From NCBI GenBank assembly GCA_964505635.1, contig CAZDIP010000001.1:222412-286411 (forward strand): DNA of 64,000 nucleotides. The letters run 5' to 3'. Position 1 is the stretch's first letter, and each line of letters opens with the position of its first letter. Positions 4,002 through 31,418 of this stretch are shown in pieces. Under the pieces are notes generated by a model. That model worked only from the letters and a program-made list of their open reading frames with translations, ran no database searches and had not been told where the DNA came from. The stretch is from an uncultured Candidatus Saccharibacteria bacterium. Its GTDB lineage: Bacteria > Patescibacteriota > Doudnabacteria > UBA920. A program made the translations under genes and the position numbers.

Positions 4002-5381
4002 TTATTCTGCCTGGCTCGCTGCCTGCATGACTGCTTGCGGGGAAACATCAAAAGTTTTATCCAAATTTTTAAAGGAAGTTTTATCCTGTTCAAAATATAA
4101 ATCCACCTGACCCGTAGGTCCATTTCTGTGTTTTTTTACGTGAATTTCCGCAATATTAGGACGGCGGCTGTCTTTGCCTTTATACATGTCCTCGCGGTAA
4201 ATAAACATAACAACATCTGCGTCCTGTTCAATAGAGCCAGACTCACGAAGGTCGGAAAGTTGAGGTACTTTATCGGGACGGTTTTCCACCCCGCGCGACA
4301 GCTGGGAAAGCGCCAAAACAGGAACATTTAATTCACGGGCCAAAATTTTCAAACTTCGAGAAATTTCAGAGACTTCCTGGACGCGGTTGTCAGTATTATG
4401 GCCTTCCATAAGCTGCAAATAATCAACTACAATTAGCCCCACATTATGCTCCGACTGCAGACGTCTGGCTTTGGTTCTTACTTCCATTATATTACTGCCG
4501 GCTGAGTCATCTATAAAAATTGGCGCTTCTGACAATTGCCCCATGGCTTCGCCGATTTTTTCAAAATCCTCATCGTTTAAATGGCCGGTACGTATTTTCC
4601 ACAAATTAACGTCGCTCTGTGAGGATAAAAGACGATCAACCAACTGGTCTTTGCTCATTTCCAAAGAAAAAATGCCAACCGGAATTTTTAAATTTACCCC
4701 AATATGGCGCATTATATCCAAAGCCAGGCTGGTTTTGCCCATGGAAGGACGCGCAGCCAAAACTATTAAATCGGATTTTTGCATGCCGCCAAGCAAGTTG
4801 TCCATATCAATATAGCCGGTTGACACGCCCCTCAAACTGCCCTTGTCTCTATGTAGTTCGTCTATCCTTTCAAAAGTGGAATGGAGGATTGTAGAAATTG
4901 AAATGAAATTCTGTTTTAAATGCTTTTGCGAAACACCAAATAATTTTTGTTCCGCTGCATCCAAAATATTTTCCACTTCACCCTCTTCCTTATAAGCCAG
5001 GCTGCTGATTTCCCCGGCGGTTTGTATAAGCCTTCTTAAACTGCCTTTCTTTCTTACAATAAAAGCGTAATGGACGACATTATTAGCCGAGGGCACCATA
5101 TTTACCAACTGGGTCAAATAGCTGCTGCCGCCAATAGTTTCCAAAAGTTTCTTTTCTTCAAGCAGGTTCGTAACGGTTAAAATGTCTATGGGGGTATTTT
5201 TTGAAAAAAGTTCAACTGCCGTTTCGTAAATCAGCTTATGCCTATGGTCATAAAAGTCATCTGCTGAGATTACGTCGGCAATTTTTATAATTGCGTCCCT
5301 ATCTAGCATAACGCAGCCCAAAACCGACATTTCTGCTTCGTTGTTTTGAGGAGGAACTCTCTGAACTGTAGAATTATCCAT
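4002..5381 (-). CDS. dnaB: Replicative DNA helicase DnaB
   Basis: PPQNNEAEMSVLGCVMLD N-terminal signature, Walker A ARPSMGKT, RecA-like C-terminal domain. Confidence 0.95.
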   Translation of the reverse strand: MDNSTVQRVPPQNNEAEMSVLGCVMLDRDAIIKIADVISADDFYDHRHKLIYETAVELFSKNTPIDILTVTNLLEEKKLLETIGGSSYLTQLVNMVPSANNVVHYAFIVRKKGSLRRLIQTAGEISSLAYKEEGEVENILDAAEQKLFGVSQKHLKQNFISISTILHSTFERIDELHRDKGSLRGVSTGYIDMDNLLGGMQKSDLIVLAARPSMGKTSLALDIMRHIGVNLKIPVGIFSLEMSKDQLVDRLLSSQSDVNLWKIRTGHLNDEDFEKIGEAMGQLSEAPIFIDDSAGSNIMEVRTKARRLQSEHNVGLIVVDYLQLMEGHNTDNRVQEVSEISRSLKILARELNVPVLALSQLSRGVENRPDKVPQLSDLRESGSIEQDADVVMFIYREDMYKGKDSRRPNIAEIHVKKHRNGPTGQVDLYFEQDKTSFKNLDKTFDVSPQAVMQAASQAE

Positions 5382-5548
5382 AAAAAATAACTAGAATATT
5401 TATAGTTAATTATAACTAAAGTTAAACATTTTTAAAACAGTAAAAAAGCCCTTGTTTAAGGGCTAAACTGCATAAGTTGTGCAGAAATAGGGGACAAATA
5501 AACTCATAAAATGCTAAAATAAGAAAAATTAACACTTTATTTAATTTA

Positions 5549-5863
5549 ATGTCCTCCGAAATAAAAAACGGCGAACCAGCCGAAAAACCAGAAGCCCCGT
5601 CAATTACTTGGACAAAAACCGTTTTGGATAGGTGTGAAAGGCTAATTAATGACCCGACTGAATATAAACCAAAAACATTTTATGACCCAGTTATGCAGAC
5701 TATTGAAAATGAGTTAATACCGAGGCTAAAAATTGCGCCTTACCAAAATAAAGTTATTGTAAGAAATTTGCTTTTGGAATTTCTAAGTAAATACGAAGCA
5801 AGTTTGCCGGCAAGTGTTATTGACAAATTATCTCAGCTATCTACTGAGACAATAGAAAAGTAA
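5549..5863 (+). CDS. Hypothetical protein
   Basis: 104-aa ORF with no recognisable motif. Confidence 0.35.
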   Translation: MSSEIKNGEPAEKPEAPSITWTKTVLDRCERLINDPTEYKPKTFYDPVMQTIENELIPRLKIAPYQNKVIVRNLLLEFLSKYEASLPASVIDKLSQLSTETIEK

Positions 5864-5873
5864 CAAGTAAATC

Positions 5874-7214
5874 TTACTTTTTACTTGCCTTCTGTCCTTG
5901 CGGGGTATCTTTGACTTCGTACCCCAAAGACTCGATCTTTAACCTTAATTCATCTGATTTTTGGAAGTCTTTAGCATCCCTGGCCGCCTGGCGCTCAGCT
6001 AAAAGTTTTTCAACTTTTTCTGGTAAGGGTTCTTGGACTTTTTCGTTAAAAAAATTGAGGCCAAAAACTTGATCAGGGCTAACGTTTCCATCATGCAGTT
6101 TAAAACTTAATCCAAGAGCCTTAGGTATGTTCAAATTATCATTTAACGCATCAGTAACCTCAGCGTAAACTTTATCTTCCTCATAATTATCTGTCCGTTG
6201 GGTAATCAGACGATCGGTTTTTTTAAAAGTATCTATGAGGAAGTTCATCTGCGTTTGATAGTGTGCGCCACAGAGTGTGGATCTTAATACATTTCCAGCA
6301 ATTGGATTAAATGCTTCCAGATCTTTTAAAGTATAAAAATTTCCCGCACTCTTTGCCATTTTTCTGCCATCTACCAACAAATGTTCGGAATGAAACCAAT
6401 GATGCACAAAATTACCTTTACCTAGCAAGGCTTGGCTTTGTGCTATTTCATTGGTGTGGTGGGGGAATATTAAATCTACGCCGCCTGTGTGAATGTCTGT
6501 CGGTTCGCCATTAAATGCGACTTTGTTTATAACCGAGCATTCAATATGCCAGCCCGGACGGCCTTTGCCCAAAGTTTCGTGATCCCAATATATATTTCCA
6601 TCAGTCTCTGGGTTATATGCTTTCCATAAAGCAAAATCTGACAAATTGTCTTTTTCATACTCGTCTACTGCCACACGAGCGCCAACTTTTTTGCCTTCTA
6701 TAAATTTCTCTCCAACCAGTTGGCCGTAGTCGCCAAAATCTTTTTGGTATTTTTCAATACTAAAATAAGTACTGCCGTCTTCGGCTTTATATGCATAACC
6801 CTTGTTAATTAGCTCAACAATAAACTCCTGGATTTCCGGCATCTTTTCCGTCACGCGAACAAACTCTATTTCATCTACTAACACGTTAACTTCGCGCAGG
6901 TCGCTAATAAAAGCCAAACGGTATTCTTCTGTAAAATCAAACAATTCTTTTACCCCGGCGTTTTCCCCATATTTCTCAATAGTCCCTTTTATAGTTTTGT
7001 CGTCAATATCCGTTAAATTCATAACCCAGCGTGGCTGATAGCTGTCATATTTAAGCGTACGGTAGAGCAAATCTGCCAAAATAAAACTGCGCAAATTACC
7101 AATATGGGCATAATTATATATAGTTGGACCGCAAGTATACATATTAAAATTGCGGTTTTGGGGCTTTTGAATTTCTTCGATTTCCTTTGTTAAAGTGTTG
7201 TAGAGTTTTAGCAT
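5874..7214 (-). CDS. cysS: Cysteine--tRNA ligase
   Basis: CGPTIYNYAHIGN (HIGH region) and KMAKSAGN (KMSKS). Confidence 0.95.
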   Translation of the reverse strand: MLKLYNTLTKEIEEIQKPQNRNFNMYTCGPTIYNYAHIGNLRSFILADLLYRTLKYDSYQPRWVMNLTDIDDKTIKGTIEKYGENAGVKELFDFTEEYRLAFISDLREVNVLVDEIEFVRVTEKMPEIQEFIVELINKGYAYKAEDGSTYFSIEKYQKDFGDYGQLVGEKFIEGKKVGARVAVDEYEKDNLSDFALWKAYNPETDGNIYWDHETLGKGRPGWHIECSVINKVAFNGEPTDIHTGGVDLIFPHHTNEIAQSQALLGKGNFVHHWFHSEHLLVDGRKMAKSAGNFYTLKDLEAFNPIAGNVLRSTLCGAHYQTQMNFLIDTFKKTDRLITQRTDNYEEDKVYAEVTDALNDNLNIPKALGLSFKLHDGNVSPDQVFGLNFFNEKVQEPLPEKVEKLLAERQAARDAKDFQKSDELRLKIESLGYEVKDTPQGQKASKK

Positions 7215-7304
7215 AAAAGCATTATATCAAATATCAATAAAAACAACGATGGGCATTTTCTGTTTAAGCAGAAAATGCCCATCTGATATAAAGCTAAAAA
7301 TAGG

Positions 7305-9008
7305 TTAGACGATTGCCTCTAAATGACCTTTGCGTAATTTTTTTAATGCGCTTAAGGTATTTGCTTCCTCTAAAATCTTTGCCAAATGCAGGCCGCCAAT
7401 AAAGTGAGGGGAAAGTACATAGTCAACACCGTTTTCGTACAGGTACTTGCTTTCAAAATCGTTTTGCGCTGTAAAAATTGTCTTAGGCTTTCTTGGATAT
7501 TGCTTCAAAGCTGCCAAAAGACTCAGGTTATCGTCTAAGTCAGGTACGGTAGATATAATTAATTTTGCCTTATTTAAATTGATCTGTTCTTGAATATATG
7601 GATCGGCAATATCTCCGCAAATAGTAGTTATGCCCGCAAGCTCGTGTTTTAGAGCAATGTGAGGATCAAAATCTACCACAACGAGCTTATGGCTTTTGCT
7701 GCTTAACTCGTGCAAAAATCTGCTGCCTAGACGATTAGCACCCACTAAAATAACATGGCTTTTGAATCCGTCCTCATTAAAAAATTTTTCGGCATTACCA
7801 TTCCCAAAATTAAACCATCTCAAATACGGATGTAAAAAATTATATAAAGGCTTAGTGTACAAAATCATATAGGAAGAAACAGCCATTGTAATTAGACCTA
7901 TAATGGTTATCAGCCCCAAAATATCCCCGGAAACATGGCCGAGACGGTTGGCCAAAGCAATAACCACAAAGCTAAATTCACTAATTTGAGCTGTTGTAAC
8001 AGCAGCAAAAAAAGATGTTCTGGGTGTATAGCCTAAATAACCCATAATCAACATCATTAAAAAGGGCTGAACGAGTATTACAAACAAACTGAAAATCACG
8101 GCCGGCAAAAGCATAGACAACACTCCGGCAAAAGCCAGCTTAGTACCGAATACAATAAAAAATAAGATTAAGAAAAAATCCCGCAAATACTTTATGCGAG
8201 CAGAAATCTCATAATGAACCTGTGTGCTAGCCAAGCTTAAGCCAGCAACAAAGCCCCCAACTTCCAACGAAAACCCAACGGCTGGAAAAGACATAAAAGA
8301 GGCAAGGCCCAAAGCCCAGGCCAAAGCAAAAATCATAAGTAGTTCATCTGACTGGCCGAACCTGTTTAAAAATTTAGGCATTACTTTTTTACTTATCCAT
8401 GACAAAAGTAAGACTAAAATCAAAACCTTAACGCTCATAGCGAGTAAATACTGCCATGTGGGAAGACTTCTAAAAATATCAACCCCCATTTCATGCCCAC
8501 CGGCCCCGCCCAAAAACAAAAGGATAGCCAAAGCTGCAAAATCCTGAATGATTAAAAATCCTACTGTAATTCTGGCATATAAACTTTGTAAATCCTTTTT
8601 ATCCGAAAGTAATTTAACAACAATAATTGTTGAGGAAAAAGTGAGTGCGATGGCTATGTACCAAGCCGTAACATTTGAAAAACCAAAGGCAAGGCTTATT
8701 AAATAACCCAAAGCCGCAGTTAAAACCATGTGCCCTATGCCTGTATAAATCGCCACCTTACCCAATTGGCGAATTCGTTTTATATCCAATTCCAAGCCGA
8801 CCATAAACAGCAGCAAAGTTATGCCGATTTGCCCCAGTGAATCCAATACTTCCTTATGTTCAAGCTGAATATACCCCAAAGGCCCGACTATAAGCCCGGT
8901 TAAAATAAAGGCTATAACACTGGGTTGCTTAAGCCAGCTTACCAGCACGGCAATTAAGCCGGCCAAAACTAAAACCCCGGTAATTTGATAAAAAATAGTT
9001 TGATCCAA
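7305..9008 (-). CDS. Cation:proton antiporter (CPA2/Kef-type) with C-terminal RCK/TrkA-N domain
   Basis: About 12 TM helices, then a Rossmann-like HVILVGANRLG segment. Confidence 0.8.
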   Translation of the reverse strand: MDQTIFYQITGVLVLAGLIAVLVSWLKQPSVIAFILTGLIVGPLGYIQLEHKEVLDSLGQIGITLLLFMVGLELDIKRIRQLGKVAIYTGIGHMVLTAALGYLISLAFGFSNVTAWYIAIALTFSSTIIVVKLLSDKKDLQSLYARITVGFLIIQDFAALAILLFLGGAGGHEMGVDIFRSLPTWQYLLAMSVKVLILVLLLSWISKKVMPKFLNRFGQSDELLMIFALAWALGLASFMSFPAVGFSLEVGGFVAGLSLASTQVHYEISARIKYLRDFFLILFFIVFGTKLAFAGVLSMLLPAVIFSLFVILVQPFLMMLIMGYLGYTPRTSFFAAVTTAQISEFSFVVIALANRLGHVSGDILGLITIIGLITMAVSSYMILYTKPLYNFLHPYLRWFNFGNGNAEKFFNEDGFKSHVILVGANRLGSRFLHELSSKSHKLVVVDFDPHIALKHELAGITTICGDIADPYIQEQINLNKAKLIISTVPDLDDNLSLLAALKQYPRKPKTIFTAQNDFESKYLYENGVDYVLSPHFIGGLHLAKILEEANTLSALKKLRKGHLEAIV

Positions 9009-26296: not shown

Positions 26297-26412
26297 AAAC
26301 CCGCCAACTTTTGGTGCCGATGTAGCTCAGCTGGTAGAGCATCTCCATGGTAAGGAGAAGGTCTCCGGTTCAATCCCGGACATCGGCTCCAGAAAATTGG
26401 CGGGTTTTTGTT
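26297..26412 (+). terminator. Terminator-like helix whose loop is a whole tRNA gene
   Basis: AAACCCGCCAA (26297-26307) pairs with TTGGCGGGTTT (26397-26407), followed by a T-run. tRNA-Thr(GGT) lies between the two arms. Confidence 0.5.
26316..26391 (+). tRNA. tRNA-Thr (anticodon GGT), CCA encoded
   Basis: Manual cloverleaf: GCCGATG/CATCGGC acceptor, GCTC/GAGC D stem, TCTCC-ATGGTAA-GGAGA anticodon arm, TCCGG-TTCAATC-CCGGA T arm. Confidence 0.9.
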
Positions 26413-26471: not shown

Positions 26472-26990
26472 ATGGAGAATAATGATTTATTTCATAAAAA
26501 ATATTTGGGTGAATTCGTATACGGCGCAATGGACGGCACAGTTACGACTTTTGCCGTTGTGGCTGGCTCCATAGGCGCTTCTTTAAGCCCGACTATTGTT
26601 TTAATTTTAGGTTTTGCGAACCTTTTCGCGGACGGCTTTTCCATGGCCGCTTCCAACTACCTTTCTACTCAATCAAAAAACGATCTGCAAAACATTCAGG
26701 AAGAAAGTCCAATAAAAACCGCTCTGGCAACTTTTGTTTCTTTTATAACAGTAGGTTTTATACCTTTGTTTTCATTTGTAGTGTCGGCTACTAACTCAAA
26801 TACTGACAAGTGGACATTTAAACTTTCCATAATTTTAACCGGTGTTGCTTTTTTGCTAATAGGATTTGTGAAAGGTAAAGTCTCCGGCCGAGGGCCGGTT
26901 CGTTCCGCTTTGGAAACGCTTTTAATTGGCATGCTCGCGGCAAGCATAGCCTATGGCGTTGGAGTTTACCTTAGAATGCTTGTTGGGTAG
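26472..26990 (+). CDS. VIT1/CCC1-family (DUF125) iron/manganese transporter-like membrane protein
   Basis: [20 protein letters not shown] signature and C-terminal TM helices. Confidence 0.65.
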
Positions 26991-27006
26991 TCATATTACC
27001 AAAATT

Positions 27007-27039
27007 AAAATACCGCAATGCTTGCGGTATTTTAATTTT
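27007..27039. terminator. Rho-independent terminator (bidirectional)
   Basis: AAAATACCGCAA / TTGCGGTATTTT stem with a 3-nt loop and flanking A/T runs. Confidence 0.7.
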
Positions 27040-27123
27040 GGTGGGCGGTGCAGGACTCGAACCTGCGAAGCCGTAAGGCACCTGATTTACAGTCAGGTGT
27101 AATTGCCGCTATACGAACCGCCC
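27039..27123 (-). tRNA. tRNA-Tyr (anticodon GTA), class II long variable arm, CCA encoded
   Basis: Reverse complement folds as GGGCGGT/ACCGCCC acceptor, CCTGA-CTGTAAA-TCAGG anticodon arm, GCC-TTAC-GGC variable arm, GCAGG-TTCGAGT-CCTGC T arm. Confidence 0.9.
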
Positions 27124-27926
27124 ATACTTGTAAATTTTTTAAGTCTCTCTTCGTGTTTTTTGTTCTTAAAACCTATCTCGGTGATATATTTATTTATGTC
27201 CGATTTTCTGGTTAAGTATACACTATGTACACTAATTTTGGAAGGGCTGAAGTTTAGGTTTAAAAATGCCTGTCTAACATCCGCGAGCAGAAGTTTTGAA
27301 AGGTTGGAAAAAGAAATTTGTACCCCTTTATGCATTTTATAGACCGATCCGTCCGTATCGATTAAACCCCTTAAAACAGATTTTAAATATACTTTCCTCT
27401 TAAAAATCCAGGCAGGTATTTTAACCTGTGATTTGGTTTTATTATGAGCCATCCCTTGCCCTAAAAGCCATTTAACCGCTACTGAAGAGCCAAAATACAC
27501 AACTTGGTCGCCCCTTTTAGTGATAATTGTTTTTGGCTTTGAATTAAATACCTTTTTCATTAATTCTGAAACATGCGGGGCATACTTATCTTTTGTGCCT
27601 AACGTAACCGTGACTTGGGTTTTAGTAATATGACCGTCTCCTAAAATTATGCCTATTAATTCAGCTAAATCGCCGGAATATTTTTTTGGCAAAATAATAT
27701 TTTTATTTATATTATTATATCCGGCTTTTTTATCACGTAAAGTTTTTATATTTAGCCTAACTAATCTGTCATAAACGCTATTCTCTGCTAAGTCTAATAT
27801 TTTTGCAATCTCGTTTATGGCTTTATTTTGTTTGACATATAGAAATACAAGCTGTTGCTTGTTTTTTAAACATTCTTGTCTTGTCCATTTTCTGGCCATA
27901 TTTAGATAATATGTAAAAATTGACAT
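27093..27926 (-). CDS. Free-standing double-motif LAGLIDADG homing endonuclease with N-terminal HTH
   Basis: Two LAGLIDADG motifs (LIGIILGDGH and LRGLIDTDGS). N-terminal HTH-like INEIAKILDLAENSVYDRL. The last 31 nt overlap the 5' part of tRNA-Tyr. Confidence 0.85.
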   Translation of the reverse strand: MSIFTYYLNMARKWTRQECLKNKQQLVFLYVKQNKAINEIAKILDLAENSVYDRLVRLNIKTLRDKKAGYNNINKNIILPKKYSGDLAELIGIILGDGHITKTQVTVTLGTKDKYAPHVSELMKKVFNSKPKTIITKRGDQVVYFGSSVAVKWLLGQGMAHNKTKSQVKIPAWIFKRKVYLKSVLRGLIDTDGSVYKMHKGVQISFSNLSKLLLADVRQAFLNLNFSPSKISVHSVYLTRKSDINKYITEIGFKNKKHEERLKKFTSMGGSYSGNYT

Positions 27927-28077
27927 TTCGTCAAATTTTTAATTAACCACTTCGGTATATTAATATCTTTCCTCTACTGACTCGTTTTGCATACAAAGAA
28001 AGCCATCCTGCCTAAAGTCCAGAGTGTGTTAAATTTTCTACAAAATATTATCTCTTACATTCTAAATCCTAAATTTT

Positions 28078-29334
28078 TTACGTTCCTTCCTGCCATGAGG
28101 CCAAATACTTTTTTTGCGCCGGGGTGAGTTCGTCTATTTTTATGTTCATAGCCACAAGCTTTAACCTTGAAACTTTCTCGTCAATTTCTTTGGGCACATC
28201 GTGCACTTTACCTTTTTCAAGTTCTTGATGATGCTTAGCCAGCCATTCGCACATTAAGGCCTGGTCGGCAAAACTTAAATCCATAACAGCGCTTGGGTGG
28301 CCTTCGGCTGCGGCCAAGTTCATTAAACGGCCTTCGCCAATAAGATAGATCTTTCGTCCATCTTTCACGGAGTATTCATGAAGATTAGGCCTTACTTCCT
28401 TATCGCTTGTCGCTAATCGCTCTAAATCTTTCTGATTTATTTCCACATTAAAATGCCCGCTATTGCCTAAAATAGCCCCGTCTTTCATAACAGCCATATG
28501 CTCTTTTACAATTACGTCCTTATTGCCCGTGACTGTAATAAAGACATCGCCCAAGCGCGCGGCTTTAAGCATTGGCATAACTTCAAAACCATCCATGGCA
28601 GCCTGGAGAGCGGGGAGAGGGTCAATTTCTGTTACTATAACTTTTGCGCCCATACCTTTAGCCCTTAAAGCAATGCCTTTTCCGCAATAACCATAACCAG
28701 CCACAACCACAGTCTTGCCGGCAAGTAAAATATTGGTTGCCCTAAATAAGCTGTCTAAGGTAGACTGGCCGGTACCGTAATAGTTGTCGAACATGTGCTT
28801 AGTCGGCGTGTCGTTTATTGCTACTACCGGAAATTTTAATTTACCGTCTTTAGCCATAGCTTTAAGGCGTATAACTCCGGTGGTAGTCTCTTCCTGGCCG
28901 GAAAAAATTTCTTTAAGCTGGCTTTTGCGTTCTTTATGAAGGACAGAAATTAAGTCCGCGCCGTCGTCTACTATAATTTGCGGGTGGAAGTTTAAAACCT
29001 TGTTCACGCACCAATAGTATTTTTCATCGCTAATGCCGCGCCAGGCAAAAACGTTTATGCCTTCTTCAGCCAAAGCCGCGGCTACATCGTCCTGGGTGGA
29101 AAGGGGATTAGAACCGCATAGCGCGACTATAGCGCCGCCTGCTTTTAGAGCTTTCATTAACACCGCGGTTTCTTTGGTTACATGCAAACAACAGGCAATT
29201 GTCAGGCCTTTGAAAGGCTGCTCTTTAGCAAATTCTTTTTTTACAATTTCTAAAACCGGCATTTCTTTTTCTGCAAGCGCGATTTTCATTTTACCCTGCT
29301 TGGCAAGAGAAGGATCTTTTACTTTAGATGACAT
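28078..29334 (-). CDS. ahcY: Adenosylhomocysteinase
   Basis: Full-length match in motif order, including NAD-binding GYGYCGKG. Confidence 0.95.
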   Translation of the reverse strand: MSSKVKDPSLAKQGKMKIALAEKEMPVLEIVKKEFAKEQPFKGLTIACCLHVTKETAVLMKALKAGGAIVALCGSNPLSTQDDVAAALAEEGINVFAWRGISDEKYYWCVNKVLNFHPQIIVDDGADLISVLHKERKSQLKEIFSGQEETTTGVIRLKAMAKDGKLKFPVVAINDTPTKHMFDNYYGTGQSTLDSLFRATNILLAGKTVVVAGYGYCGKGIALRAKGMGAKVIVTEIDPLPALQAAMDGFEVMPMLKAARLGDVFITVTGNKDVIVKEHMAVMKDGAILGNSGHFNVEINQKDLERLATSDKEVRPNLHEYSVKDGRKIYLIGEGRLMNLAAAEGHPSAVMDLSFADQALMCEWLAKHHQELEKGKVHDVPKEIDEKVSRLKLVAMNIKIDELTPAQKKYLASWQEGT

Positions 29335-29337
29335 AAA

Positions 29338-30378
29338 TTATATTTTACTATTTTTTAATGCTTGTAAATATTCTTGGGTTATACCTGGGCACAACATTCT
29401 AATTAGTGAAAAAGTTTTTTCTTCATACTCCGCCCAATCAGCCTGTTTAACTGCCGTCTGAGGCGCAGATAAAAATTCAGAAGCTTTTTTTAGCCAGACG
29501 TCATAGGGCCTCATGTAGGCCTCTTTGTCATACCACCCAAAAATACCTTCTTTACGCAAGGCTGACAGACTTAGCAAAGCAACATCCACGTTTTTTAATT
29601 CCAGCCCTTCCGCCCCCTGGCTATTGTTTGCCAAGTATACCAGACCCTTTGTTTTTTTAACATCTAGCCGGTCGGTAGGCGGCTGCCAAACTAAATAGGA
29701 AACAGACTCGCTTTTTACCGCCCCGGGATTTGTGGCAGTATTTTCGTACAGAGAATCTACAAGAATCAATTCGACGTCTTTTAAAAGATGACGGCTAACA
29801 GCTTCGGGGTACTTAAAAAGGCTATCCTTTATATCCCGCGCCCCGTCACGCAAAGCTTTAATTCCGCTAATAGGTTTAACAACGAAACTTCGACCGCTCT
29901 TTTCTTCCTTATAGGAATTCCCGGGTCTGGGAATAAGCATATCCACGCCAAACTGATTGACCAAGACCTCTGTCTCCCTTCTGACGGTTTCGTTCCACTT
30001 TTGAGAGGCTTCCATGTCTCTGCCGTAATCTAAAGCAAATTTCAAACCAGAACCGGCCGCCAAAGAAGCTGCGCCGGCAGCCAAACCTGACGCAAATCTC
30101 CTACGGTTTACCGGATTGCGTGAATGTTCTTCCGATTTTACTTCGGCAATTTGATTAGATCTTAAAAGCAAGCGCTCGGACTGCTCTGGGGTAAGACTGC
30201 CGCGGTTAGATTCAACAAATTTTTTAAAACGCCCTCTAACCTTTGACTCTATAAGCTTTCCGGATGTTGCTTTTAATATGTTGCCCAAATAATCAGACTG
30301 CGGCTTAGTGCTTGGATTTGCTTTTTTTGGCAAGTCTTCATCTGGCTCTTCATCAAGTTGATATATTTTTTCAGACAT
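29338..30378 (-). CDS. Hypothetical protein with internal RRRF + Ala/Gly-rich hydrophobic segment
   Basis: 346-aa ORF. A Tat-signal-like NRRRFASGLAAGAASLAAG sits near residue 92. No catalytic motif recognised. Confidence 0.4.
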   Translation of the reverse strand: MSEKIYQLDEEPDEDLPKKANPSTKPQSDYLGNILKATSGKLIESKVRGRFKKFVESNRGSLTPEQSERLLLRSNQIAEVKSEEHSRNPVNRRRFASGLAAGAASLAAGSGLKFALDYGRDMEASQKWNETVRRETEVLVNQFGVDMLIPRPGNSYKEEKSGRSFVVKPISGIKALRDGARDIKDSLFKYPEAVSRHLLKDVELILVDSLYENTATNPGAVKSESVSYLVWQPPTDRLDVKKTKGLVYLANNSQGAEGLELKNVDVALLSLSALRKEGIFGWYDKEAYMRPYDVWLKKASEFLSAPQTAVKQADWAEYEEKTFSLIRMLCPGITQEYLQALKNSKI

Positions 30379-30566: not shown

Positions 30567-30756
30567 GCCAGCTTAGCTCATCTGGTAGAGCAACGGTTTT
30601 ACCTGCCCGCCAGTCGCCGAGTGCCGATGTAGCTCAGTTGGTAGAGCAACGGTTTTGTAAACCGTAGGTCGTCGGTTCAAACCCGACCATCGGCTCCAGG
30701 CGATCGGCAGGCGGGTAAACCGTAGGTGGCCGGTTCGAGTCCGGCAGCTGGCTCCA
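30567..30756 (+). tRNA. Interrupted Thr-type tRNA (outer gene): halves 30567-30600 and about 30715-30756, separated by an insert of about 114 nt
   Basis: GCCAGCT/AGCTGGC acceptor, GCTC/GAGC D stem, ACGGT/ACCGT anticodon stem, GCCGG-TTCGAGT-CCGGC T arm, discriminator T, CCA. All stems are perfect. The anticodon loop is split after TTT. Confidence 0.6.
30623..30698 (+). tRNA. tRNA-Thr (anticodon TGT), CCA encoded, nested inside the outer Thr-type tRNA
   Basis: GCCGATG/CATCGGC acceptor, ACGGT-TTTGTAA-ACCGT anticodon arm, GTCGG-TTCAAAC-CCGAC T arm. Confidence 0.9.
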
Positions 30757-31133: not shown

Positions 31134-31418
31134 GGGGGCGTCGTATAATGGTAGTATCCGCCGACGCTAAAGCTGTAGCGGACAAGCAGCGGTCTCCGCC
31201 CCGCCTTTACAAACTTAAATATTATCTCCACGGCATCTGGTGGGGGGTTCGTATAACGGTAGTACAATGGTCTCCAAAACCATTTGCGAGGGTTCGACTC
31301 CTTCACCCCCTGCCAAACGCCGCGGAGCTATATTTCGGCCAATAAACCAAAACCGATTGCGTGCTTGCCCGACGAAGTCTTAACGAAGTCGGGGGTTCAA
31401 TTCCTACCGCCCCTGCCA
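31134..31418 (+). other. Split Trp-like tRNA halves (acceptor + D arm 31134-31157; T arm + acceptor + CCA 31391-31418) bracketing tRNA-Trp; possible pseudogene or intron-containing tRNA
   Basis: GGGGGCG pairs with CGCCCCT (G1.U72, discriminator G, as in the inner Trp). D arm is GTAT-AATGGTA-GTAT. T arm GGGGG-TTCAATT-CCTAC has one G/A mismatch. I could not reconstruct an anticodon arm. Confidence 0.45.
31242..31315 (+). tRNA. tRNA-Trp (anticodon CCA), CCA end encoded
   Basis: GGGGGGT/ACCCCCT acceptor (G1.U72), ATGGT-CTCCAAA-ACCAT anticodon arm, GAGGG-TTCGACT-CCTTC T arm, discriminator G. Confidence 0.9.

Follow-up and report, generated by a model that had tools for sequence, protein, structure and literature searches.

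The habitats known for homing endonucleases are introns, inteins and a small number of free-standing genes in phages and organelles. What, then, is an intact gene of the LAGLIDADG class doing directly ahead of a tRNA gene, outside any intron or intein? The question arises from a 64,000-nucleotide (nt) stretch of DNA from an uncultured Candidatus Saccharibacteria bacterium of the Patescibacteriota (contig CAZDIP010000001.1, positions 222,412 to 286,411; hereafter the window), in which an open reading frame (ORF) begins downstream of ahcY and runs into the gene for tRNA-Tyr. We present evidence that this ORF apparently represents a selfish DNA element, widespread in ultra-small bacteria and archaea, that is tied to one tRNA gene and seems not to have been described. 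The cassette has a recurrent layout, consisting of a copy of the tRNA D-arm (tRNA nt 8-27), a promoter, an ORF without a Shine-Dalgarno sequence, and an intact cognate tRNA gene that the ORF abuts or reads into, and this layout is found at tRNA-Tyr in Patescibacteria and at tRNA-Gln in archaea. That the ORF belongs to an optional, mobile endonuclease cassette tied to a tRNA gene we regard as highly probable. The best overall explanation, and on the sequence comparisons a probable one, is a mobile homing cassette that invades the tRNA gene and supplies a replacement for it; the narrower proposal that insertion occurs inside the tRNA at about position 27/28, with the replacement carried along, could equally well be right or wrong.

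The initial annotation of this locus described a 277-amino-acid ORF with two LAGLIDADG motifs, and both the frame and the places of the motifs hold. The ORF is intact, and in the family search that the annotation had proposed its product matches PF14528 (LAGLIDADG_3) in two stretches (E=1.8e-12, 47.8 bits; Pfam cut-off 22.5 bits). The two catalytic aspartates, D97 (GDG) and D192 (DTDGS), are invariant in a family alignment of 23 sequences. An AlphaFold2 model of the protein (predicted local distance difference test, pLDDT, 88.1; predicted template-modelling score, pTM, 0.77) has the tandem alpha-beta-beta-alpha-beta-beta-alpha LAGLIDADG fold, with only residues 1-10 and 269-277 disordered (pLDDT <50 for the latter). 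Foldseek returned 96 PDB matches at E<=0.001, LAGLIDADG proteins throughout among the matches listed, of which the closest solved folds are I-Tsp061I, I-DmoI and the endonuclease domains of PI-SceI and TliVMA (E 4e-10 to 1e-6; template-modelling score on the target 0.72 for I-Tsp061I and ~0.65 for I-DmoI; identity only 17-20%). These proteins likewise have two LAGLIDADG motifs per chain with conserved acidic residues. I-DmoI and I-Tsp061I are archaeal, intron-encoded, monomeric LAGLIDADG enzymes; unlike them and the inteins, the ORF family has an extra N-terminal three-helix region and resides in neither an intron nor an intein. WhiA is also among the fold matches, and the Pfam LAGLIDADG_WhiA family is matched weakly (21.3 bits, below its cut-off of 23.2). 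A phmmer search of PDB chains with the ORF protein gave no match, and an exact-protein look-up found no record.

Two details of the earlier description need amendment. The stop codon, which had been placed at 27090-27092, is a TGA at 27093-27095, 3 nt away, and the true start is most likely the ATG at 27899 (M10 of the longest frame), giving a protein of 268 residues, because homologues start at the equivalent MARKW, because a TTGACG-17-TATTAT promoter ends 6 nt before this ATG and holds the upstream ATG at 27926 inside its spacer, and because residues 1-10 are disordered in the model. The proposed N-terminal helix-turn-helix (HTH) remains plausible, as the model has three helices at residues 16-57, but the Pfam HTH matches there stay below threshold (E 0.02-0.1).

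The gene is free-standing, as first described, and lies outside any intron, intein or rRNA gene. Rfam searches of 26900-28400 returned tRNA-Tyr as the sole match and no group I intron even at E<=10, and no gathering-score match to Intron_gpI or another intron occurs anywhere in the window. The ORF is not in frame within any host protein and is the single copy of the endonuclease gene in the window; its G+C content is 33.6%, compared with 39.1% for the whole window and 41-44% for its neighbours. It stands between ahcY and an uninterrupted tRNA-Tyr gene on the same strand, and ARAGORN and Rfam confirm the reported 31-nt overlap (27093-27123): the first 31 nt of the tRNA form the 3' end of the ORF, and the last 10 codons are read from tRNA-Tyr sequence. 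Chance does not account for this overlap, since all relatives examined show the same junction.

How general is the junction? A scan of one genome per species found relatives of the ORF in more than 408 genomes, from which 80 loci (identified below by L numbers) were kept. The 452 homologues at ~50% identity all come from Patescibacteria, and 469 clusters (50% identity) score E<=1e-30; most copies are intact, and identity within the family is ~50%, with 47 invariant positions. The ORF lies directly 5' of tRNA-Tyr(GTA) and on its strand in 64 of 64 Patescibacteria loci (L044 by way of Rfam), directly 5' of tRNA-Gln in 14 of 14 archaeal loci, where the relatives are ~300 residues long and ~35% identical, and 5' of tRNA-Ser in two other loci, L070 and L079. 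The usual order in Patescibacteria is tRNA-Thr(TGT), ORF, tRNA-Tyr and tRNA-Thr(GGT), with tRNA-Trp farther on. Homologues often end in GGSYSGNY or GRFV, which is the 5' end of tRNA-Tyr translated in two frames. In most loci the conserved part of the protein closes with a KH motif 23-36 nt ahead of tRNA +1, and the stop codon falls anywhere from -17 to +38 relative to the tRNA and in all three frames, with peaks at +15 and +37/38 (in L052 it lies 8 nt before the tRNA). The tail of the ORF is thus incidental, since the stop falls wherever the tRNA sequence offers one, in agreement with the disorder of the tail in the model. Viral contigs yielded 17 distant LAGLIDADG loci (<=39% identity), with no tRNA genes in them; because viral LAGLIDADG genes never adjoin tRNAs, the tRNA association is specific to this ORF family. 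Carriage by phage was considered and rejected, as the viral contigs hold only such distant genes and none beside a tRNA. The two outcomes that the initial annotation had set against its own view, homologues uniformly encoded in introns and an ordinary conserved gene unrelated to tRNA loci, were not encountered: the homologues are free-standing.

The cassette is optional at its site. A metagenome scan with the D-arm pattern of the window-type tRNA-Tyr gave 120 loci, mostly Thr-Tyr-Gly-Thr operons or phage tRNA arrays; the raw occupancy of 2/86 is not meaningful, because this pattern is not specific to Patescibacteria, and the loci used were ~32 with Patescibacteria-like flanks, plus syntenic pairs. 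Compared with the occupied locus L037, a block of 819-871 nt immediately 5' of the tRNA is missing from loci L131, L180 and L117, which have clpB (88% at the amino acid level) and the downstream flank in common with it. Empty and occupied partners likewise differ by 837 nt (L196 and L014), 787 nt (L149 and L017) and 861 nt (L158 and L040), so that what is polymorphic among related genomes is a discrete block of ~790-870 nt at a fixed site, as befits a mobile element. None of seven clpB-tRNA-Tyr loci is occupied in a sample anchored on clpB, which is independent of tRNA and ORF. The species-genome scan holds 14 occupied loci with clpB as neighbour, and among these the identities of clpB and of the ORF are not correlated (Spearman -0.14, 91 pairs). 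Decayed copies occur as well, with mixed stops or frameshifts in L061 and L074, truncation in L062 and L064, and an internal deletion in L152; ~5-7 of the 64 Patescibacteria copies are pseudogenised or truncated. No integrase lies within the ~870-nt block of the compared occupied loci, and the same compact content recurs in ~80 loci. Presence and absence, pseudogenes and incongruence with a host marker, together with a tRNA fragment upstream of the ORF, favour endonuclease-driven mobility of a tRNA-associated cassette, which had been raised as a possibility at the outset.

Apparent stops in three further copies are not decay, because every in-frame TGA in L006 (4001-4798), L022 (3079-3876) and L025 (4001-4729) falls at a family-invariant Trp (W14, W153, W173). 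In these lineages UGA seems to code for Trp, and not for Gly or a stop; in L025 a tRNA at 5134-5207 has the anticodon UCA where other loci have tRNA-Trp(CCA).

The upstream fragment is a copy of the tRNA D-arm. In 42 of 61 bacterial loci the 90 nt 5' of the start contain the core GAGTGGTCAATTG with <=3 mismatches, as against 0.009 expected per 90 nt. A tRNA-Tyr profile hidden Markov model (nhmmer) matches 31 of the 61 upstream regions and 14 of 1220 shuffles, from model positions ~1-10 through 24-30; ~9-11 of these 31 matches are neighbouring tRNA-Thr, sensitivity for ~20-nt remnants is low, and the motif count and a column-wise comparison complement the search. In the latter, identity to genuine tRNA-Tyr genes with the fragment-type D-arm is at background over nt 1-7 (21-42%), 95% at T8, 54-100% over the D-stem and D-loop and 50-73% up to linear nt 28 (canonical ~27), and from the next base onward it is 2-4%; the fragment thus has a sharp breakpoint, 73% to 4%, at the start of the anticodon stem. 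The whole 5' segment, including the acceptor strand, is kept in L017 (GCGTCGGTACTCAAGCGGTCAACGA) and similarly in L027, L035 and L062. The archaeal loci L075-L078 carry a 5' fragment of tRNA-Gln (nt 1 to 22-28; z 4.9-7.1, with 0-1 of 200 shuffles as good), and L079 carries a weak tRNA-Ser fragment (z 2.0). The tRNA-Gln fragments are followed by tatataaa, which we take to resemble a TATA box. Each branch thus has a fragment of its own cognate tRNA, Tyr in the bacteria and Gln in the archaea, so that every change of target must have produced a new piece of tRNA. In 20 loci, the most frequent arrangement, the D-arm core ends 31-33 nt before the ATG and so puts TTGCAA at the -35 position, and in other loci the motif lies in the promoter spacer or supplies the -10 box.

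These promoter signals bear on how the tRNA is made. The sigma-70-type promoter in the window matches 10 of 12 consensus positions, a weak signal when taken alone (6 sites found as against 4.9 in shuffles). Of 57 loci, however, 26 have a -10 hexamer whose end lies exactly 6 nt ahead of the start codon and 48 have one ending 5-8 nt ahead of it, compared with 2-14 at control offsets, and a Shine-Dalgarno-like tetramer is present in one. From the position of the -10 box, which ends 6 nt before the ATG, we infer that the ORF mRNA is leaderless. No terminator was found between the ORF and tRNA-Tyr in the window, and no -10 box at a fixed offset precedes tRNA +1 at occupied sites; for the latter reason a promoter of the tRNA within the 3' end of the ORF was rejected. 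Directly after the tRNA stands a perfect 21-base-pair hairpin (-27.4 kcal/mol, z = -8.4, equalled by 0 of 200 shuffles), which a consensus terminator scan did not list and which is a probable bidirectional terminator closing the ORF-tRNA transcription unit. Co-transcription of the two genes, as suggested in the initial annotation, is accordingly very probable. Empty sites in the clpB lineage have a conserved native tRNA promoter, CTGATAGACT, 17-21 nt before tRNA +1. This promoter is missing at occupied sites, and the tRNA is therefore presumably read through the ORF and released by RNase P. As the stop codon lies inside the tRNA in about three quarters of the copies, RNase P cleavage would strip it from their mRNA, and one may speculate that non-stop decay of the cut ORF mRNA keeps the level of enzyme low.

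The homing cycle that we propose would begin with cleavage of cassette-free tRNA alleles near the junction of the D-stem and the anticodon stem (canonical ~27/28), at a recognition site that would span the D-loop AGTGGTCAA and the anticodon stem-loop; in fragment-type alleles the predicted target would be, for example, GAGTGGTCAATTGC|ANNNNNCTGTAAA. LAGLIDADG homing endonucleases characteristically cut both strands at one specific long target of ~22 bp. Repair of the break from an occupied allele would copy in the promoter, the ORF and a functional tRNA, or the 5' part of one. The D-arm of the carried tRNA differs, and this tRNA would presumably be uncleavable. The old D-arm would be left upstream, overlapping the ORF promoter and often giving its -35 TTGCAA, where it may serve as a homology arm, as an operator or as both. 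The native tRNA promoter would be lost in the process, with the tRNA supplied by read-through of the cassette and RNase P release. The D-loop AGTGGTCAA is common to tRNA-Tyr, tRNA-Gln and tRNA-Ser and could ease switches of target, with specificity given by the anticodon region.

The tRNA alleles agree with this scheme in part. The fragment-type D-arm core is present in only 6 of 57 intact tRNAs of occupied loci, ~90% differing between fragment and intact gene; the window itself has a short-D-loop "type A" D-arm, TCGTATAGCGGCAATTAC, that differs from its upstream fragment. Conversely, the cassette-free locus L207, at clpB, has an intact tRNA-Tyr (allele GCGTAGGTGGCAGAGCGGTCAATTGCATCAGACTGTAAATC...) with exactly the fragment-type D-arm, GGCAGAGCGGTCAATTGCA. 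A clean split into sensitive and resistant alleles was rejected, as ~6-8 occupied loci keep a fragment-like D-arm, some of them with an intact ORF.

Several observations weigh against insertion of the cassette into the tRNA with a carried replacement. The target site and the position of the cut are read solely from where the tRNA similarity ends. Because the intact tRNA restores a contiguous junction of D-arm and anticodon stem, resistance must rest on sequence differences, and L009, L023 and L028 have the fragment-type D-arm in the intact tRNA despite an intact ORF. In the L037 lineage the intact tRNA is of the type seen in cassette-free relatives and the fragment is the odd one, so that a simple displacement of the native copy by a foreign one would require additional events, for instance that the ORF was lost or that resistant alleles spread. 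At ~20 nt the homology arms would be short for recombination, and the flat relation of clpB and ORF identity spans a narrow range of identity (63-88%). Finally, the conservation of nt 8-27, with the acceptor part at background, argues that the D-arm copy is under selection as a part of the element, a promoter or an operator, and is not a passive scar; it could in principle have another origin.

The fragment-type intact tRNAs of some occupied loci, the tRNA types of L037, the promoter-like conservation of the D-arm copy and the short arms make a spacer-resident endonuclease the main rival, which we nonetheless consider unlikely. Here a free-standing enzyme would cut a nearby site in genomes without the cassette and be copied together with flanking markers, an "intronless homing" like that of Seg and Mob of phage T4. 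The D-arm-like motif would then not mark an insertion but act as promoter or operator, perhaps as the legacy of a single partial duplication long ago. For a scar the motif is indeed too well conserved, and in every case it overlaps the promoter, be it the -35, the spacer or the -10; the intact tRNA of L037 is the usual one of its lineage, and in L201 another ORF stands upstream of an undisturbed native tRNA promoter. What a spacer resident does not account for is that the fragment fits the cognate tRNA of each branch, extending in archaeal tRNA-Gln to the acceptor strand, that the full segment of nt 1-25 survives in the four bacterial loci named above, that in bacteria as in archaea the similarity breaks off at the same tRNA position, and that the native tRNA promoter is missing at occupied sites. 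The phage T4 SegB gene, a free-standing GIY-YIG endonuclease gene in the T4 tRNA cluster, does spread without an intron; to our knowledge it has no fixed junction with a single tRNA, no duplicated tRNA fragment and no reported family-wide tRNA specificity.

Less probable than a spacer resident, and improbable overall, is that the protein has been domesticated for a host function at tRNA-Tyr, either as a WhiA-like regulator of the tRNA operon or as the RNA-processing, maturase-like helper that the initial annotation had entertained. Strict synteny across very divergent lineages, the intactness and conservation of most copies, the N-terminal HTH-like region and a conserved promoter motif that could be an operator would all suit such a role, and WhiA shares both the LAGLIDADG scaffold and an HTH. 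In WhiA, however, the HTH is C-terminal rather than N-terminal, the distribution is near-universal rather than patchy and the catalytic Asp residues have been lost, whereas both are invariant here. Patchy distribution, pseudogenes and the retained catalytic residues make domestication unlikely: the ORF is missing from the same locus in most close relatives, its G+C content is low, and its phylogeny is not congruent with that of clpB. Nor is there an intron to assist; LAGLIDADG maturases are encoded in group I introns, and at this locus there is none and the adjacent tRNA is uninterrupted. Very improbable indeed is that the gene is what remains of an intron- or intein-borne endonuclease, or of a tRNA-targeting integrase island, after the rest has eroded. 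Integrative elements classically target tRNA genes, and islands of this kind are flanked by partial copies of the tRNA; the cassette-free locus L204 even has a serine recombinase beside the same tRNA-Tyr. Against an eroded remnant stand the want of any group I intron signal, the position of the ORF outside host reading frames, the integrase-free block and its uniform, compact content, and the identity of the duplicated piece, which is the 5' part of the tRNA, where integrases usually duplicate the 3' part.

The homing cassette that we favour has a parallel in the mobile ORFs (mORFs) of fungal mitochondria, in which an endonuclease ORF is accompanied by a foreign copy of the C-terminus of the host gene and by the displaced native C-terminus, as in atp6 of Allomyces macrogynus and atp6, atp9, cox2 and nad3 of Glomus (PMC3630166). 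In both cases, on this reading, an endonuclease ORF without an intron sits in a host gene and either overlaps the carried piece or is fused to it, the carried terminus would keep that gene functional, and beside the ORF lies a partial copy that has been displaced; the flanking partial duplicate of the tRNA gene, with one functional and one displaced copy, is of the mORF type. The polarity is the mirror image: mORFs duplicate the C-terminal part and have its displaced copy downstream, whereas here it is the 5' part, with the displaced copy upstream. The gene targeted here is that of a tRNA on bacterial and archaeal chromosomes instead of a mitochondrial protein gene, and the displaced piece appears to have been co-opted into the promoter of the element. 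LAGLIDADG endonucleases of the candidate phyla radiation sit in rRNA insertions and introns, in an account that leaves tRNA unmentioned (PMC11270868), and a survey of group I introns within genes for tRNA found that those of Patescibacteria hold only HNH genes and no LAGLIDADG (PMC13011429). Those systems share with ours the host phylum, the enzyme superfamily and targets that are conserved RNA genes; neither account describes a gene standing free upstream of tRNA-Tyr, and full-text literature searches found no description of this tRNA-adjoining arrangement.

We rate the cassette as a homing endonuclease element with a new class of target and a new architecture. If this is true, it adds a new habitat for homing endonucleases and a new route to harmlessness, in which the interrupted RNA gene is restored rather than spliced, and it provides a case in which a selfish gene has taken over the transcription of an essential tRNA. 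It would explain the recurrent "hypothetical protein" beside tRNA-Tyr in many genomes of candidate phyla, and one would expect a natural set of enzymes whose long targets lie in tRNA genes, with co-varying enzyme-target pairs of use for engineering specificity. More tentatively, it is possible that recurrent attack by this endonuclease family shapes tRNA genes themselves, by driving the wholesale exchange of tRNA-Tyr alleles for ones with other D-arms among close relatives, by selecting in archaea for D-arm introns that interrupt the DNA target of the enzyme and, as the native promoter is replaced, by tying the tRNA to the transcription of a selfish gene. This would offer a testable cause for the turnover of tRNA-Tyr alleles and for the D-arm introns of archaeal tRNA-Gln. 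If true, it would also name a concrete agent of selection behind non-canonical introns in tRNAs, and perhaps behind the fragmentation of tRNA genes. The finding outgrows the single locus from which it started, because it extends to two domains and three tRNA species and brings a mechanism that can be tested.

Table 1. Features of the endonuclease locus in the window, and archaeal tRNA-Gln genes with introns in the D-arm (the latter in coordinates of their own loci)
Feature	Position	Strand	Remarks
LAGLIDADG homing endonuclease gene	27093..27926 (longest ORF, 277 aa); 27093..27899 (from probable start, 268 aa)	minus	intact
Motif 1, LIGIILGDGH	27630-27659 (region 27630-27665)	minus	catalytic D97
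Motif 2, LRGLIDTDGS	27345-27374 (region 27345-27377)	minus	catalytic D192
HTH-like region	~27756-27881	minus	sub-threshold Pfam HTH matches and model helices
Sigma-70-type promoter of the ORF	27906..27934	minus	-35 TTGACG 27929-27934, 17-nt spacer, -10 TATTAT 27906-27911
Degenerate tRNA-Tyr D-arm copy	27937..27957	minus	corresponds to tRNA nt 8-28 (linear); core AAGTGGTTAATTA at 27940-27952, 3 mismatches
tRNA-Tyr(GTA)	27039..27123	minus	intact, class II; ARAGORN; Rfam 57.7 bits
Perfect 21-bp hairpin	26998..27042	minus	flanked by A- and T-runs; directly after tRNA-Tyr, between it and the convergent VIT gene
ahcY (S-adenosylhomocysteine hydrolase)	28078-29334		upstream neighbour of the ORF
Unannotated 346-aa ORF	29338-30378		between the endonuclease ORF and tRNA-Thr(TGT)
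VIT-family gene	26472-26990		convergent, downstream; between tRNA-Tyr and tRNA-Thr(GGT)
tRNA-Gln with D-arm intron	L063 4616-4719; L067 2496-2603; L068 1330-1457; L071 4832-4947; L073 4814-4916

Non-canonical introns, one or two per gene, lie inside the D-arm of tRNA-Gln in 5 of the 14 archaeal loci, all of them occupied (Table 1). They are placed after TAG at ~15/16, after GGYCAA at ~21/22 to 26, or at both, and so fall in the stretch equivalent to the displaced fragment; such introns might make the DNA allele uncleavable.

The nearness of other tRNA genes to the ORF, which the initial annotation had remarked on, has an ordinary explanation. In relatives, tRNA-Thr(TGT), tRNA-Tyr, tRNA-Thr(GGT) and tRNA-Trp often form one co-oriented cluster. 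In the window this conserved cluster (26316-26391, 27039-27123, 30623-30698 and 31242-31315) has been split and its parts mutually inverted, with the pair of ORF and tRNA-Tyr kept together.

The clpB locus shows further variety around tRNA-Tyr. Downstream of clpB, the close relatives L201-L207 (clpB 75-89% identical) carry two very different tRNA-Tyr alleles, for example at 5253-5337 in L207 and 5236-5318 in L202: type A has a short D-loop and the acceptor GCGCCGG, the other a long D-loop and the acceptor GCGTAGG. The native promoter CTGATAGACT...AAATAT precedes both the type-A alleles of L202-L206 and the long-D-loop allele of L201, and the upstream sequence of L207 differs; the body of the tRNA-Tyr gene thus seems to have been exchanged at this locus. 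In L201 the position between clpB and tRNA-Tyr is taken by a different ORF of 208 residues (5240-5866), which shares 6 nt with the tRNA. The N-terminus of its product is HTH-like, a single LAGLIDADG-like motif (YWGEGFKGH) is present, and the ORF has a TTGACT-17-TATTAT-6-GTG promoter of its own, while the native tRNA promoter lies within its 3' end. Its relation to the endonuclease family is weak (hhalign probability 57%, no Pfam match). In L037 (1230-3944) the clpB frame runs ~38 codons beyond the end of ClpB similarity and stops 57 nt before the endonuclease ATG, so that the insertion seems to have altered the 3' end of clpB. The stretch 5252-7639 of the cassette-free L204 holds the serine recombinase (Resolvase and Recombinase domains) and a gene like that of a rolling-circle Rep beside the same tRNA-Tyr, a locus that a second, unrelated kind of mobile element thus appears to use. 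In the oriented copy of L152 (930-1794), finally, a decayed cassette, made up of a D-arm fragment, a -10 box and an ORF with an internal deletion and frameshifts, precedes a long-D-loop tRNA-Tyr, after which come tRNA-Thr(TGT) and a second tRNA-Tyr of type A; two different tRNA-Tyr alleles thus stand side by side.

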